DNA from: a virus
Lineage: Duplodnaviria; Heunggongvirae; Uroviricota; Caudoviricetes
Reading direction: 5' to 3' (one strand)
DNA length: 4,835 nucleotides
IMG/VR virus record: IMGVR_UViG_2671180435_000006
Shown: one piece after another, positions 1 through 4,835 of the stretch
Position numbering within the stretch: the stretch's first letter is position 1
How the letters are laid out: each line of letters opens with the position of its first letter
The notes under the pieces: generated by a model
What the model was told of the DNA's origin: nothing
Seen by the model: the letters and a program-made list of their open reading frames with translations, nothing else
Databases searched by the model: none
Made by a program: the position numbers and the translations under genes

Positions 1-32
1 ATACACTAAATCAGTAAGTTGGCAGCATCACC
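1..32 (-). mobile_element. IS1 terminus (left end, IRL), element body lies beyond the window's left edge
   Basis: Reverse complement of 1..32 is GGTGATGCTGCCAACTTACTGATTTAGTGTAT, which I recognise as the first 32 nt of IS1 including the 23-bp left inverted repeat. The element is therefore on the minus strand with its outer boundary at position 32. Confidence 0.9.
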
Positions 33-160
33 GAAGTGGTAAAGAAGATAATAAAGAATAATATTTAGGGTTATAGGTCTTAGCCCATTTTAAATGGAAG
101 GCAGACATGCAGCCATGCATACTTCGCATGGCAACATAATTATTTAGACAAACTATCTAA

Positions 161-398
161 NNNNNNNNNNNNNNNNNNNNNNNNNNNNNNNNNNNNNNNN
201 NNNNNNNNNNNNNNNNNNNNNNNNNNNNNNNNNNNNNNNNNNNNNNNNNNNNNNNNNNNNNNNNNNNNNNNNNNNNNNNNNNNNNNNNNNNNNNNNNNNN
301 NNNNNNNNNNNNNNNNNNNNNNNNNNNNNNNNNNNNNNNNNNNNNNNNNNNNNNNNNNNNNNNNNNNNNNNNNNNNNNNNNNNNNNNNNNNNNNNNNN
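161..398. other. N-masked block (238 nt), content unknowable
   Basis: Run of n characters seen directly in the sequence. Confidence 1.
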
Positions 399-513
399 AT
401 GGGTGAGCAATAATGTATACAAGATTAAGTAGTATATAAATTGCTACCGGAATGAAAATCATGCTCCAGTGTGTATCTTTTTTGGGAGGGATTGGCTGCA
501 AATAATCAGACAC
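399..513 (-). CDS. 5' part of an ORF encoding a hydrophobic, transmembrane-like segment; 3' end hidden in the masked block
   Basis: Minus-strand frame opens after an in-frame stop at 580..582 with GTG at 511..513 (alternative ATG at 460..462). Visible translation is MSDYLQPIPPKKDTHWSMIFIPVAIYILLNLVYIIAHP, with a roughly 18-residue hydrophobic stretch. Same strand as, and 82 nt downstream of, the 596..973 ORF. No convincing Shine-Dalgarno for either start. Confidence 0.3.
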
Positions 514-595
514 CGTTTTTCCATCAGTTTCAAGAAGAATTACTAGATCTCTTACTTCACCACTGACTTGAGTGCATCCTTAGTAGTAATGTTAA

Positions 596-973
596 TCATT
601 TTTTCCCTCCAAATACGATGCCCTCTACGTCTTTGGAAGCTTTTTGTGATGACCACTCCTCTGAATCAGGTGATTTAATTAAAAATATTGTATCTCCATC
701 AAAAATCGTATTTGTTCCGTAAAAATTCACATTTGATAGATCACCACCAAAAACCCTCTGCCCACTCGAGGTAATTGCCTCACCTAATTTAGTAAAATTA
801 CCAGCAATAGATGATTTTCTTTTTCCACTTCTATTCAAAGTGGCTTTAATTACACCACCACCATCCTTAGAGTTAAATAATTGAATGTCCACTCCAGCAG
901 TTGGTTGTATATATTTTGAAAGCTCTTTCTTGAACTTGTTAATATATTTATCTTTGTTTTCTTTGTTGGTCAT
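596..973 (-). CDS. hypothetical protein, 125 aa, A+T-rich, no family recognised
   Basis: Uninterrupted 378-nt ORF in DNA visibly much more A+T-rich than the nin genes, where stop-free frames of this length are unlikely by chance. ATG at 971..973, TGA at 596..598. Lys-rich N-terminus, Gly/Ser/Asn-rich body, no signal peptide or TM segment. Shine-Dalgarno weak. Confidence 0.55.
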   Translation of the reverse strand: MTNKENKDKYINKFKKELSKYIQPTAGVDIQLFNSKDGGGVIKATLNRSGKRKSSIAGNFTKLGEAITSSGQRVFGGDLSNVNFYGTNTIFDGDTIFLIKSPDSEEWSSQKASKDVEGIVFGGKK

Positions 974-1126
974 TGGTTAGATCCATAGTTCTGGCTGTGA
1001 TTAGGTGAAAGTATACAAGGTTTTTAAAGCGAAGATCACTGTTTTGGCTTCAAGATAGTTTTGATTTATCGTAATCAATCCGCCATAATCCTCTCATCGG
1101 AGCCTGAACAACTCCGGTGACTTCTG

Positions 1127-1150
1127 CGCATTTAAGGGGACTTAAATGCG
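1127..1150. promoter_or_regulatory. perfect 10-bp-stem palindrome (CGCATTTAAG-GGGA-CTTAAATGCG) in the leader upstream of the nin-type operon
   Basis: Arms 1127..1136 and 1141..1150 are exact reverse complements around a 4-nt loop. Not followed by a T-run on either strand, so not a canonical intrinsic terminator. Candidate protein-binding site or RNA hairpin. Confidence 0.3.
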
Positions 1151-1181
1151 ACCACAATCTGAACTCATCACCTTGTCACAG

Positions 1182-1211
1182 ATGCAGAAATGCACCTGCG
1201 ATTTTCTGCAT
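1182..1211. promoter_or_regulatory. inverted repeat ATGCAGAAA ... TTTCTGCAT (9-bp arms, 12-nt spacer) just upstream of the ybcN-like start
   Basis: Arm 1182..1190 is the exact reverse complement of arm 1203..1211. Lies 27 nt upstream of the ATG at 1238. Confidence 0.25.
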
Positions 1212-1237
1212 TCTGCGGTTTCCGTTAGGGAGGCCGT

Positions 1238-1693
1238 ATGACTCTGCCAGTAGACGGCATCAAACTCCATCGCGGTAACTTCGCGGCCATCGGCCAGCAG
1301 ATTCAGCCATTGCTGGATGCCGGGCAATGCTTACGCCTGCAGGTTAAGCCGTGGCGCGAGAAGCGCAGCCTGTCGCAGAACGCGCTCAGCCACATGTGGT
1401 ACACGGAGATCAGCGAATATCTCATCGCCCGCGGCAAGACCTTCGCTACGCCTGAGTGGGTCAAAGACGCGATGAAGCACACCTATCTCGGCTACGAAAG
1501 CAAAGACCGTGTAGATGTCGTGTCCGGCGAGGTCACCACCGTCCAATCCCTCCGCCATACGTCAGAGCTGGAAACCGGCGAGATGTACATCTTCCTGTGC
1601 AAAGTCGAAGCCTGGGCGATGAATATCGGCTGCCACCTGACAATTCCGCAGAGCTGTGAATACCAGCAGCTGCGCGATAAGCAGGAGGCGTAA
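1238..1693 (+). CDS. ybcN: nin-region protein of lambdoid prophage, YbcN-like (151 aa)
   Basis: ATG at 1238 preceded by GGGAGG at 1228..1233; TAA at 1691..1693. The 151-aa length and position immediately upstream of ninE-ybcO-rusA match the DLP12 gene order. I assign it by synteny and size; I do not recall the reference protein sequence well enough to confirm residue by residue. Confidence 0.8.
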   Translation: MTLPVDGIKLHRGNFAAIGQQIQPLLDAGQCLRLQVKPWREKRSLSQNALSHMWYTEISEYLIARGKTFATPEWVKDAMKHTYLGYESKDRVDVVSGEVTTVQSLRHTSELETGEMYIFLCKVEAWAMNIGCHLTIPQSCEYQQLRDKQEA

Positions 1694-1863
1694 TGGCTAC
1701 ACCGCTTATTCGTGTCATGAACGGGCACATCTACAGAGTATCAAATCGTCGTAAGCGTAAGCCTGAGCTGAAGCCATCCGAAATACCAACACTGCTCGGA
1801 TATACCGCTAGCCTGGTTGATAAAAAATGGTTGCGACTGGCAGCAAGGAGGAATCATGGCTGA
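1693..1863 (+). CDS. ninE: NinE family protein (56 aa)
   Basis: Manual translation from the ATG at 1693..1695 (overlapping the preceding TAA as TAATG) gives [56 protein letters not shown], ending at TGA 1861..1863. This matches my recollection of NinE. Too short for the supplied ORF track. Confidence 0.8.
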   Translation: MATPLIRVMNGHIYRVSNRRKRKPELKPSEIPTLLGYTASLVDKKWLRLAARRNHG

Positions 1864-2146
1864 TTTGAGAAAAGCAGCGCGTGGTCGGGAATGCCAGGTA
1901 AGAATCCCTGGCGTATGTAATGGCAATCCTGAAACGTCAGTACTGGCACATATCCGGCTGGCTGGATTGTGCGGTACCGGTATCAAACCGCCAGACCTGA
2001 TTGCCACCATTGCATGTTCTGCCTGTCACGACGAAATCGACCGCCGCACATATTTTGTCGATGCTGAGTATGCAAAAGAATGCGCGCTGGAAGGTATGGC
2101 GAGAACGCAGGTTATCTGGCTGAAAGAGGGGGTTATTAAGGCGTGA
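1856..2146 (+). CDS. ybcO: DLP12-type prophage protein YbcO, Cys-rich putative nuclease (96 aa)
   Basis: The track ORF 1817..2146 begins at a TTG. The ATG at 1856..1858 has GGAGG 6 nt upstream and yields [33 protein letters not shown]...[11 protein letters not shown]..., the 96-aa YbcO form as I recall it. Start overlaps the ninE stop (ATGGCTGA). Confidence 0.85.
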
Positions 2147-2505
2147 ATACCTACAGCATCACATTACCCTGGCCTCCGAGCAATAACCGCTATTACCGCC
2201 ATAATCGCGGGCGCACACACATCAGCGCAGAAGGGCAGGCATACCGCGATAACGTCACCCGAATCATTAAAAACGCAATGCTGGATATCGGCCTGGCTAT
2301 GCCAGTGAAAATCCGTATTGAGTGCCACATGCCGGATCGCCGTCGCCGTGACCTGGATAATCTGCAAAAAGCCGCTTTTGACGCACTCACCAAAGCAGGT
2401 TTCTGGCTGGATGATGCTCAGGTCGTTGATTACCGCGTTGTGAAGATGCCTGTTACCAAAGGTGGGAGGCTGGAACTGACCATCACCGAAATGGGGAATG
2501 AATGA
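2143..2505 (+). CDS. rusA: Holliday junction resolvase RusA (120 aa)
   Basis: GTG start at 2143..2145 overlapping the ybcO stop (GTGA), with a purine-rich AGAGGGGG upstream. Translation [26 protein letters not shown]... matches RusA. Acidic residues at positions 70, 72 and 91 (D-L-D ... D-D) are present, the catalytic positions as I recall them. Confidence 0.93.
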
Positions 2506-2642
2506 TGTTTGAGTTTTATATGGCAGAACTTCTTCGCCACCGCTGGGGGCATCTGCGCTTATATCGTTTCCCCGGTTCTGTTTTGACCGATTACCGAATA
2601 CTGAAGAATTACGCCAAAACCCTGACAGGAGCAGGAGTATGA
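2502..2642 (+). CDS. ylcG: small prophage protein YlcG-like (46 aa)
   Basis: ATG at 2502 overlapping the rusA stop (ATGA). Manual translation is [46 protein letters not shown], ending at TGA 2640..2642. Position after rusA and before Q matches DLP12. Below the ORF track length cutoff. Confidence 0.65.
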
Positions 2643-2655
2643 AGTCAGAGATAAC

Positions 2656-2681
2656 AATCAACTAATACTGTTTTGTTGATT
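2656..2681 (+). other. A+T-rich hairpin (AATCAAC / GTTGATT, 12-nt loop) followed by TTTGC, between ylcG and Q
   Basis: 7-bp inverted repeat seen directly. The stem is weak (no G:C core), so at best a weak attenuator. Confidence 0.2.
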
Positions 2682-2727
2682 TTTGCTTGTAATTGGCGTT
2701 CTGGTCTGATTTTTGTGGAGTAAGTTG

Positions 2728-3111
2728 ATGCGTGATATTCAGATGGTTCTTGAGCGTTGGGGAGCGTGGGCGGCTAATAATCATGAAGATGTGACCTGGT
2801 CGTCCATTGCCGCCGGTTTTAAGGGATTAATTACTTCAAAAGTAAAATCTCGCCCGCAATGTTGTGACGATGACGCGATGATTATTTGCGGGTGCATGGC
2901 CCGTCTGAAAAAGAACAACAGCGATTTGCACGATTTATTAGTAGATTATTATGTAGTCGGTATGACATTCATGTCACTGGCAGGTAAGCATTGCTGCTCT
3001 GATGGTTATATCGGGAAAAGGTTACAGAAGGCTGAGGGCATAATTGAAGGGATGTTAATGGCATTAGATATCCGGTTAGAGATGGATATCGTTGTTAATA
3101 ACTCTAATTAA
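2728..3111 (+). CDS. quuD: late-gene antiterminator Q (QuuD-like, 127 aa)
   Basis: ATG at 2728 with GGAG at 2717..2720. Translation [26 protein letters not shown]... with Cys clusters ([18 protein letters not shown]) consistent with a Q-family zinc-binding protein. Follows the nin genes as in lambdoid phages. The track start at 2713 is an upstream TTG that I reject. Confidence 0.9.
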
Positions 3112-3144
3112 TATGCCAATTGTTTACTAAAAATTATTAAAAAT

Positions 3145-3162
3145 GGGGCGTTGCAACGCCCC
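3145..3162 (-). terminator. intrinsic terminator for minus-strand transcription, probably the porin mRNA 3' end
   Basis: GGGGCGTTGCAACGCCCC is a perfect palindrome with a GC-rich stem. On the minus strand it is followed by AUUUUUAAUAAUUUUUAG. On the plus strand it is followed by CAAAAAUAAA, so it is not a plus-strand terminator. Confidence 0.5.
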
Positions 3163-3228
3163 CAAAAATAAAGGGTAATATATAACAGAAGGTTTATATA
3201 GTTAGAAGCAAGGTTGTGCTCCTAAAGG

Positions 3229-3284
3229 AAGTGGCTTGAGGGAGCCACTTATATGTTGGGGAGGCAAAGCCTCCCGCAACATAT
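3229..3284. other. two tandem hairpins immediately downstream of the porin stop codon
   Basis: Hairpin 1 at 3229..3250 (AAGTGGCT / AGCCACTT, 6-nt loop). Hairpin 2 at 3251..3284 (ATATGTTG + GGGAGGC, loop AAA, GCCTCCC + bulged G + CAACATAT), followed on the plus strand by CTTTTA. Either 3'-UTR stabilising structures of the porin mRNA or a weak plus-strand terminator. Confidence 0.35.
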
Positions 3285-3299
3285 CTTTTAGTAATCAAA

Positions 3300-4382
3300 T
3301 TAGAACTGGTAAACCATACCTACAGCAACGATATCATCGGTAGCAACGCCAGATGCTTTCGTGAAATCGCTCTTATCAATCAGGTTGATTTTGTAATCAA
3401 CAAAAGTGGACATATTTTTGTTGAAGTAATAGGTTGCACCTACATCAATATATTCAACCAGGTCCTGATCACCCCACGCACCCAAGTCTTTTCCTTTAGA
3501 TTGCAGGTAAGCAACGGACGGACGCAGACCGAAGTCGAACTGATATTGTGCAACTACTTCGAAGTTTTGTGCTTTGTTGGCAATATGGTTATTACCAAAA
3601 ACAGTCATGTTCTGGGTTTCAGAATAGGTGGTAGCCAGATAGATGTTGTTCGCATCATATTTCAGACCAGCTGCCCATACTTCAGCATTTTGACCAGATG
3701 CATTCAGGCTGTTGTTACCGTAGATAACCTGATTATTAGTGCGGTCAGATTTAGCATAGGTTGCACCTACACCGAATCCTTCATACTCATAAGTAGTGGA
3801 GAAACCGAAACCATCACCATTAGCTTCAGTTACGTCAGTGCGGTCATTTTTACCCTGATACTGAGCAGCAAAGTTCAGACCATCAACCAGACCAAAGAAG
3901 TCGTTGTTACGATAAGTTGCAACACCAGTGGTGCGACCAGTCATGAACACATCTGTTTGAGTCCAAGTGTCACCACCGAATTCTGGCAGGACGTCAGTCC
4001 ACGCACCGATGTCGTATGCTACACCGTAGTTACGGCCGTAATCGATGGAGCCGTAGTCACCGAATTTCAGGCCAGCGAAGGCAAGACGGGTTTTATCTTT
4101 GGAGGAACCTTGAGATTCAGCGCGGTTGCCTTTGAATTCATATTCCCACTGACCGAAACCAGTCAGTTGATCGTTGATTTGGGTTTCACCTTTGAAGCCA
4201 AGACGGGCATAAGTAGTATCACCATCATCTGCATCATTAGAGGAGAAGTAGTGCTTAGCATTAACTTTCCCGTACAGATCCAGCTTGTTACTGTCTTTAT
4301 TATAAATTTCAGCTGCCTGAGCAGACATCGCCATCAGTACTGATGCAGCTACAGCAGAAATTGCCACTGTTAATTTTTTCAT
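3300..4382 (-). CDS. nmpC: outer-membrane general porin, NmpC/OmpC/OmpD family (360 aa precursor), apparently intact
   Basis: Translation from the ATG at 4380..4382 gives signal peptide [23 protein letters not shown] followed by [17 protein letters not shown]..., with the aromatic-rich beta-barrel pattern and C-terminal ...VGMVYQF typical of enterobacterial porins. The track's longer form starting at 4442 adds 20 residues before the signal peptide and is rejected. Position after Q and opposite orientation match DLP12 nmpC as I recall it. Confidence 0.92.
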
Positions 4383-4502
4383 CGTGAGCCCTTTTTTTGA
4401 ACTATTATTAAAAAATGATGTCATTGCGCGATAAATATTCATCTAATCAATGTGATTATTTCAAGATGTAAGTTTTGGTTTCTCGTTTGATTTGTGAAGT
4501 AG

Positions 4503-4784
4503 NNNNNNNNNNNNNNNNNNNNNNNNNNNNNNNNNNNNNNNNNNNNNNNNNNNNNNNNNNNNNNNNNNNNNNNNNNNNNNNNNNNNNNNNNNNNNNNNNN
4601 NNNNNNNNNNNNNNNNNNNNNNNNNNNNNNNNNNNNNNNNNNNNNNNNNNNNNNNNNNNNNNNNNNNNNNNNNNNNNNNNNNNNNNNNNNNNNNNNNNNN
4701 NNNNNNNNNNNNNNNNNNNNNNNNNNNNNNNNNNNNNNNNNNNNNNNNNNNNNNNNNNNNNNNNNNNNNNNNNNNNNNNNNNNN
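4503..4784. other. N-masked block (282 nt), content unknowable
   Basis: Run of n characters seen directly. It covers most of the region upstream of the porin gene, where its promoter would be expected. Confidence 1.
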
Positions 4785-4804
4785 TTACGTACGTAAAAAA
4801 TTGG

Positions 4805-4835
4805 GGTAATGACTCCAACTTATTGATAGTGTTTT
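4805..4835 (-). mobile_element. IS1 terminus (right end, IRR), element body lies beyond the window's right edge
   Basis: 4805..4835 reads GGTAATGACTCCAACTTATTGATAGTGTTTT, the IS1 right terminal inverted repeat read from outside inward. The element is on the minus strand, the same orientation as the copy at 1..32. Confidence 0.9.

Follow-up and report, generated by a model that had tools for sequence, protein, structure and literature searches.

Results

Gene content of the window

The window, by which we mean the whole 4,835-nucleotide stretch of DNA that was analyzed, carries part of a lambdoid prophage between two pieces of IS1 (Table 1). At its center is a nin-Q module (1238..3111, plus strand) in which every gene is intact and the gene order is that annotated in the prophage of Escherichia coli ETEC1747 (L001). 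The module is followed by a porin gene on the opposite strand, and although 16 synonymous differences separate the porin gene from its L001 counterpart, the encoded proteins are identical. On the other side of the module lies an A+T-rich island; the G+C content is 32-37% over the leftmost 1 kb of the window versus 50-60% in the nin genes. The sequence-only reading had listed the content as an intact porin gene, Q, rusA, and an A+T-rich island, and the annotation, the protein identities, and the G+C content all bear this out. Of the replication gene P, only the 3′ stump remains next to the left IS1, and the portion of the gene upstream of this stump is missing.

The A+T-rich island contains two phage ORFs. 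The first is frameshifted in the window by a 1-nt deletion near position 574 and is partly hidden by a run of Ns; a PADLOC scan of this ORF returned no match and its Pfam hits were below the cut-off. For the two ORFs together, nothing above the cut-off was found in the Pfam and PADLOC scans, and an Rfam scan of the window was without a match. The 125-aa protein encoded by the second ORF has exact matches in 12,488 blocks of the assembly collection.

Two runs of Ns interrupt the window (161..398 and 4503..4784). A comparison with genomes that match every unmasked base of the window revealed that each run is 32 nt longer than the real sequence. The interior was previously given as 33..4804 with a size of 4,772 bp; as the span between the IS1 ends this holds, whereas the true size after correction of the N runs is 4,708 bp.

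Table 1. Positions of IS1 termini, genes, and the target duplication in the window.
Feature	Coordinates	Strand	Remarks
IS1L left (insA-proximal) terminus, IS1 positions 32..1	1..32	-	exact reverse complement; body outside window, leftward
3′ end of lambdoid replication protein P gene, last 29 nt with stop	33..61	+	aligns to L001 4002..4030, annotated P
phage ORF phrog_16940	140..599	-	142 aa in relatives, membrane-like; L001 hypothetical protein 4109..4537; PHROG E=2e-96
phage ORF phrog_18061, 125 aa, intact	596..973	-	within A+T-rich island
ybcN	1238..1693	+	protein identical to E. coli ETEC1747 (L001)
ninE	1693..1863	+	protein identical to E. coli ETEC1747 (L001)
ybcO	1856..2146	+	protein identical to E. 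coli ETEC1747 (L001)
rusA	2143..2505	+	protein identical to E. coli ETEC1747 (L001)
ylcG	2502..2642	+	protein identical to E. coli ETEC1747 (L001)
quuD (Q)	2728..3111	+	protein identical to E. coli ETEC1747 (L001)
prophage porin, NmpC/OmpC type, 360 aa, intact	3300..4382	-	Pfam Porin_1/Porin_4
AAAATTGG, left copy of IS1R 8-bp target duplication	4797..4804		repeated past far IS1R end in L013, L015, L018, L022
IS1R right terminus, IS1 positions 768..738	4805..4835	-	exact reverse complement; body outside window, rightward

Both edges of the window are IS1 termini

The first 32 positions of the window (ATACACTAAATCAGTAAGTTGGCAGCATCACC) are the exact reverse complement of the left end of IS1, and the last 31 (GGTAATGACTCCAACTTATTGATAGTGTTTT) are the exact reverse complement of its right end. 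The assignment of left and right was checked against the annotated IS1A of E. coli CV839-06, where GGTGATGCTGCC is located 55 nt upstream of the transposase start. These 32-nt and 31-nt matches reproduce the canonical imperfect terminal inverted repeats of IS1 (left end GGTGATGCTGCCAACTTACTGAT..., right end ...ATCAATAAGTTGGAGTCATTACC) and cannot be ascribed to chance. Both copies, referred to here as IS1L and IS1R, have the minus-strand orientation and extend beyond the window, and they are thus direct repeats. The two termini and their strand had therefore been called correctly, and the proposed architecture, in which two directly repeated IS1 copies surround prophage DNA, stands. The window shows only 31-32 nt of each copy; their completeness was judged from matching complete genomes.

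The interior is collinear with uninterrupted prophages

Aligned with the uninterrupted prophage of E. coli ETEC1747, the interior shows 99.5% identity, collinearity, and a single 1-nt indel. At least 80% of the interior is present in 46 E. coli genomes. The gene order is that of DLP12-like lambdoid prophages, namely P, the nin genes (ybcN/ninE/ybcO/rusA), Q, a porin moron, and holin/lysozyme/Rz, based on the annotation of L001, L002, and L024 and on Pfam calls in L003-L022. Neither IS1 junction is present among 5,426 complete E. coli genomes, and a degenerate pattern for all four IS1 junctions gave 0 matches in the GTDB species representatives. The suggestion that the same segment might recur on other replicons or at other loci found no support: among 72,556 plasmids there was no near-identical copy, the best match being ordinary prophage DNA at 90.9% identity, and the 5,426 E. 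coli genomes are without the junctions.

Both junctions occur in Shigella sonnei

Both junctions were found base for base in four long assemblies: L013 (CP104423.1), L015 (CP049179.1, also L004), L018 (CP029794.1), and L022. The window has 4,305 unmasked bases, all of which are identical in L015, and L018 is the published genome of S. sonnei 4303. The guess of an IS1-rich host such as Shigella was thus right. The sequence beyond the window edges was inferred from the genomes identical at all unmasked bases, and approximately 20 kb around the locus was examined in each S. sonnei genome, so a second copy elsewhere in these genomes is formally conceivable. In S. sonnei 4303 the two IS1 copies measure 822 and 464 bp, which are probably assembly errors, and these lengths were left out of the structure.

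IS1R is a simple insertion

IS1R is 768 bp long in L015 and L022 and is identical to another local IS1. Its flanks read ...GTAAAAAATTGG/IS1/AAAATTGGTTATGC..., compared with GTAAAAAATTGGTTATGC in uninterrupted DNA. The octamer AAAATTGG is present on both sides of IS1R and only once in the uninterrupted prophage (L001 8703..8710), in keeping with the 8-9-bp target duplication expected of a simple IS1 insertion. Outside IS1R the prophage carries on into essD, rrrD, and rzpD. The insertion site lies upstream of both neighboring genes, at 390 nt from the porin ATG and 182 nt from the essD ATG in real coordinates. These data demonstrate that IS1R is a plain insertion in the porin-essD intergenic region with collinear prophage on both sides. 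IS1 is known to make 8- or 9-bp duplications and has been shown experimentally to cause deletions, inversions, and composite transposition (PMC12065110). The 8-bp duplication at IS1R could be a 9-bp duplication that has lost an A from an A-run.

IS1L is a rearrangement joint

The flanks of IS1L are unlike each other, with CTGCAAGCG outside and GAAGTGGTA (33..41) inside; the latter adjoins IS1L without a matching copy across the element, and no target duplication is present. On its right-end side IS1L adjoins the 3′ end of the chromosomal gene cscK, and on its left-end side it adjoins the 29-nt P stump. The outer flank maps to cscK/cscB/torI, genes that lie unbroken in more than 2,600 E. coli genomes. 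A third IS1, oppositely oriented and about 3.6 kb further left, carries at its left end CGCTTGCAG, the reverse complement of CTGCAAGCG. IS1L is without a duplication because the cscK 9-mer has been split and its second copy is located at the third IS1, and this split, inverted 9-mer argues for an IS1-mediated inversion. The 3,569-bp block bounded by the third IS1 and IS1L has the opposite orientation in E. coli CEA224S, where a prophage adjoins cscB, and all else is collinear with that prophage. The 20-kb locus lacks about 10 kb of early prophage genes. In three of the four matching assemblies IS1L is split by an IS21 that lies 231 nt outside the window edge; IS1L then spans 2,903 bp and consists of 768 bp of IS1 with a 2,131-bp IS21 in insA, and the IS21 is flanked by a 4-bp duplication. 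Taken together, these findings show that IS1L is a rearrangement joint and not a simple insertion. As read from the matching genomes, the right copy of the pair is 768 bp long and the left is split by IS21.

Alternative explanations

The window may be a whole short-read contig that ends in collapsed IS1 repeats, in which case the neighbors in the source strain could differ from those described above. The window stops 31-32 nt into IS1 at both sides and has an unrounded length, and the longest contig measures no more than 2-5 kb in 6,298 of the 12,488 blocks with the 125-aa protein, which fits IS1-bounded contigs in a heavily sequenced clone. An effect of this kind would leave the identity of the two IS1 ends unaffected, and the same outer flanks appear in each of the four independent long assemblies, one of which is identical at every unmasked base. 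We consider this explanation rather unlikely.

It was also proposed that the two IS1 copies are independent hits, which would here mean that each inserted simply, with a duplication of its own, and that the prophage is intact apart from them. For the right copy this is true, as the 8-bp duplication and the collinear outer flank attest, and the host is an IS1-rich Shigella. The left copy does not conform: its flanks do not match (CTGCAAGCG versus GAAGTGGTA), it joins the P stump to cscK, it has the cscK duplication in common with the third, inverted IS1, and the 20-kb locus lacks the early region of the prophage. A simple insertion further predicts a ...GGGATGGTGCGAAGTGGTA/GGTAATGACTCC junction, in which the P gene and the duplication stand by the right end of IS1; the four matching assemblies have cscK at this position instead, and a scan of the species representatives for the predicted junction gave no match. 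Two simple insertions are therefore highly improbable, the left copy being an inversion/deletion joint.

Homologous recombination between the IS1 direct repeats could in principle delete or amplify the interior; the four long assemblies showed neither outcome. That the block from IS1L to IS1R (8.4 kb with IS21, outer termini intact), in a host rich in active IS1, is a latent composite transposon or a deletion/amplification cassette that varies among S. sonnei isolates and alters the dosage of the prophage porin is a very remote prospect; if true, phage/colicin susceptibility or permeability might be affected.

A Tn9-type composite transposon, in which the 4.7-kb prophage segment moved into the locus together with its two direct IS1 copies or forms an active unit with them, has a close to negligible probability. 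As in Tn9 (IS1-cat-IS1), a stretch of a few kb lies between direct IS1 copies, whose outermost termini (the right end of IS1L and the left end of IS1R) are intact in L013, L015, and L022; moreover, IS1 pairs have mobilized intervening DNA in Tn9 and under laboratory evolution (PMC12065110). Outside the pair, however, the flanks differ (CTGCAAGCG versus AAAATTGGT), such that the identical 9-mers left by transposition as a unit were not found when the flanks were compared, and a composite transposon was rejected on this basis as the origin of the arrangement. Unlike Tn9, the locus is without a common outer duplication, its cargo is not foreign but native to the prophage and collinear with uninterrupted relatives, IS1R has its own duplication with the prophage running on across it, and insA of IS1L is split by IS21. 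Findings of this kind had been named in the sequence-only reading as ones that would refute a composite transposon. A second copy of the unit at another locus or replicon was not found, whether as a near-identical plasmid copy or through either junction in E. coli.

Discussion

Our preferred explanation, to which we assign a probability of about 90%, is that the window holds what survives, from nin through Q to the porin, of a defective DLP12-like prophage that adjoins the csc (sucrose) locus of S. sonnei, and that the two IS1 copies at its edges stem from separate events. The segment is native prophage DNA between two IS1 scars and was not brought in as a unit. IS1R inserted into the porin-essD intergenic region and made the 8-bp duplication. 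In the proposed course of events at IS1L, an IS1-mediated inversion would have flipped the hyp200-hyp114-torI-cscB-cscK′ block, through either intramolecular replicative transposition or recombination of IS1 copies in inverted orientation. A deletion next to IS1 probably took the approximately 10 kb of early genes, from the 5′ part of P to a TraR-like gene. Inversion and deletion may have occurred in either order, and the junction at 32/33 may be the original insertion site or a deletion endpoint, as no intermediate genome was found. The insertion of IS21 into insA of IS1L, seen in three of the four matching assemblies, came later.

Among known prophages, this one is of the defective lambdoid type of DLP12 in E. 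coli K-12 (ybcN-ninE-ybcO-rusA-ylcG-quuD-nmpC-essD-rrrD-rzpD). Gene order and orientation are shared, including a porin gene that lies in reverse between Q and the lysis genes. In K-12, nmpC is interrupted by IS5. Here, the porin is intact and an IS1 is located 390 nt upstream of it. Further differences from DLP12 are the position of the prophage beside csc and the loss of its early region, probably through IS1 events.

Among the IS that have expanded in Shigella, IS1 dominates, and in S. sonnei it accounts for most IS sites (Hawkey et al. 2020, PMC7373316), and rearrangements of Shigella chromosomes have been treated by Seferbekova et al. 2021 (PMC8072062). The locus resembles the IS1 insertions, inversions, and deletions of Shigella in its canonical termini, its one 8-bp duplication, its one joint with a duplication split between inverted copies, and its S. 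sonnei host, and nothing essential is different here. The arrangement is ordinary IS1-driven decay in S. sonnei. We did not find a paper that describes this particular locus, which is present in public complete genomes. Its importance beyond bookkeeping is small. The locus offers a worked example of how IS1 dismantles a prophage, combining a simple insertion, an inversion that splits the target duplication, a neighboring deletion, and an IS21 nested within IS1. It also illustrates that the outer flanks need to be checked before two IS ends at the edges of a short sequence are taken for a composite transposon. For S. sonnei, the outcome is the inactivation of the sucrose kinase gene cscK and of the early region of the prophage, which fits the known IS-driven gene loss in Shigella.

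Direct IS1 repeats at the window edges

The window opens with ATACACTAAATCAGTAAGTTGGCAGCATCACC (1..32) and closes with GGTAATGACTCCAACTTATTGATAGTGTTTT (4805..4835), each of which is the exact reverse complement of one IS1 terminus. The ends were assigned using the annotated IS1A of Escherichia coli CV839-06 (L002) as the reference. That copy has GGTGATGCTGCC 55 nt upstream of where its transposase gene starts, which makes this sequence the left end of IS1. Because the edge sequences are reverse complements of the assigned ends, both copies, IS1L on the left and IS1R on the right, lie on the minus strand as direct repeats with their bodies beyond the window edges, as had been read from the sequence alone.

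The interior aligns with native prophage

Over its whole length the interior aligned with the uninterrupted prophage of E. coli ETEC1747 (L001), with an identity of 99.5% and a single 1-nt indel; among complete E. coli genomes, 46 contain at least 80% of it. On L001 coordinates, the site of IS1L lies between 4001 and 4002, with 29 nt of the P gene still to come, and that of IS1R lies after 8710, at a distance of 390 nt upstream from the porin ATG and 182 nt upstream from essD, the holin gene. The interior is collinear with this IS1-free prophage, so the alignment indicates that it is native prophage DNA. The proteins of the ybcN to quuD genes and the porin are the same as in the E. coli relative, and the exact porin protein was found in 17,488 blocks of the assembly collection.

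Features of the window interior
Feature	Window position	Strand
Lambdoid P gene stump, 29 nt	33..61	
ORF in A+T-rich island, phrog_16940, 142-aa membrane-like phage ORF	140..599	-
ORF in A+T-rich island, phrog_18061, 125 aa	596..973	-
ybcN, ninE, ybcO, rusA, ylcG, quuD	1238..3111	
Porin gene, intact, 360 aa	3300..4382	-

The G+C content of the first kilobase is 32-37%, as compared to 50-60% in the nin genes. This A+T-rich island (33..1000) sits between P and ybcN and carries two opposite-strand ORFs, for which a Pfam scan gave no match above the cut-off and a PADLOC scan gave no match. It looks like a moron. The phrog_16940 ORF contains a 1-nt deletion at ∼574 (GAGTGC-ATCC versus GAGTGCCATCC) that shifts the frame at codon ∼10; CP049179.1 has the same deletion, and an unbroken reading frame is present in E. 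coli ETEC1747 and in the Shigella sonnei 4303 assembly. In E. coli CV839-06, an independent IS1A with a 9-bp duplication (L002 4776..5543; window 829..837) lies inside the 125-aa ORF. IS1 has thus landed in the island on at least two occasions, in different lineages.

Of the 19 substitutions that separate the window from E. coli ETEC1747, 16 are in the 5' third of the porin gene (3960..4275), 13 of these inside a 150-nt stretch. Every one of them is synonymous, so that the two porins do not differ, and the pattern is suggestive of a recombined patch kept under strong purifying selection. Two G+C-rich hairpins in the convergent quuD-porin gap, GGGGCGTTGCAACGCCCC (3141..3166) and GGGAGGCAAAGCCTCCC (3227..3290), are likely terminators.

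The two N runs were compared with L001 and with S. sonnei genomes that are identical at every unmasked base. The run at 161..398 spans 238 nt versus 206 nt of real sequence, and that at 4503..4784 spans 282 versus 250 nt. Each is exactly 32 nt too long; therefore the true interior is 4,708 bp and window coordinates rightward of each run are shifted. Masking or scaffolding may have introduced the excess.

Both junctions occur in Shigella sonnei

Neither IS1 junction was found in complete E. coli genomes (n = 5,426), and a four-way degenerate junction pattern had no match among GTDB species representatives. Looking up the exact protein of the 125-aa ORF led to four long assemblies that carry both junctions base for base: L013 (CP104423.1), L015 (the same place as L004; CP049179.1), L018 (CP029794.1), and L022 (JBEAAE010000002.1). 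L015 matches the window at 4,305 of 4,305 unmasked bases. L018 is part of assembly GCA_002073875.2, the published genome of Shigella sonnei 4303 (PMC6201595), which bears out the earlier guess of a Shigella host. The two IS1 copies in L018 are 822 and 464 bp long and, set against IS1, show an internal duplication and deletion; both sizes are probably assembly errors rather than biology.

Since the exact IS junctions are common to all four assemblies, we infer that they represent one clone-level lineage. For the 125-aa protein, the longest carrying contig is just 2-5 kb in 6,298 of 12,488 collection blocks, a pattern expected for a heavily sequenced clone in which this segment is usually assembled into a contig bounded by IS1. 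The window itself may be such a contig.

A simple insertion on the right and a rearrangement joint on the left

To match the window strand, L015 was reverse-complemented, and coordinates labelled L015w refer to that strand. IS1R occupies L015w 14178..14945 (768 bp) and is flanked as ...GTAAAAAATTGG-IS1-AAAATTGGTTATGCTG..., versus GTAAAAAATTGGTTATGCTG in the uninterrupted prophage. This is an 8-bp target duplication, IS1 duplications being 8-9 bp (PMC12065110); it is possible that 9 bp were originally duplicated and one A was lost afterwards. Outward of IS1R, the prophage runs on into essD, rrrD, and rzpD. Given the duplication and this continuity, IS1R is a simple insertion.

IS1L (L015w 6567..9469; L015 10910..13812) has unlike flanks, CTGCAAGCG outside and GAAGTGGTA inside, so there is no duplication. 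In three of the four assemblies (L013, L015, and L022), a 2,131-bp element splits IS1L; it shares 99.9% identity with IS21 and has a 4-bp duplication. The IS21 site is within insA (IS1 positions about 228-231), 231 nt from the IS1L end that the window includes. The outer flank of IS1L is not phage P: it holds the 3' end of cscK and then cscB and torI, and >2,600 E. coli genomes have this stretch unbroken.

A third IS1, on the plus strand, occupies L015w 2230..2997; its sequence is identical to IS1R, and IS1L differs from both by one base. Beside the left end of this third copy is the 9-mer CGCTTGCAG, the reverse complement of CTGCAAGCG, and further out comes the 5' portion of cscK, reversed. 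Thus, one 9-bp cscK duplication is split between inverted IS1 copies, which is the signature of an IS1-mediated inversion. Either intramolecular replicative transposition or recombination of the inverted copies with each other could have produced it. Across L015 13813..20378, cscK is broken by IS1 and its 5' part is additionally interrupted by an IS3-family element; the sucrose locus in L015 is wrecked.

In E. coli CEA224S, a like prophage (essD, porin, quuD, rusA ... P, O, cI, N ... exo ... torI) adjoins cscB-cscK-cscA. The S. sonnei locus is collinear with it apart from two differences: a 3,569-bp block, hyp200-hyp114-torI-cscB-cscK', is inverted in place, and ∼10 kb, starting in the 5' part of P and reaching a TraR-like gene, is absent. 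One inversion and one IS1-adjacent deletion, in either order, would account for the structure, and window junction 32/33 would be either the original insertion site or the deletion endpoint.

Alternative origins of the IS1 pair

The proposal of two independent IS1 hits holds for IS1R and needs amending for IS1L, which is a rearrangement joint. Because the outermost IS1 termini are intact, the segment could physically be mobilised in trans or the direct repeats could recombine, and IS1 pairs behave in these ways in the laboratory (PMC12065110); no sign of either was seen in the four assemblies. The Tn9-type composite transposon of the sequence-only reading is refuted by the unlike outer flanks of the pair (CTGCAAGCG versus AAAATTGGT) and the duplication belonging to IS1R itself, the cargo being collinear and continuous with the prophage, the junctions absent from the 5,426 complete E. 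coli genomes, and a search of 72,556 plasmid records having returned no near-identical copy of the interior (best 90.9% identity, ordinary prophage DNA).

In Shigella, IS1 accounts for more IS sites than any other element, and S. sonnei also has IS21 among its IS types (PMC7373316). The locus is a typical product of Shigella IS expansion.
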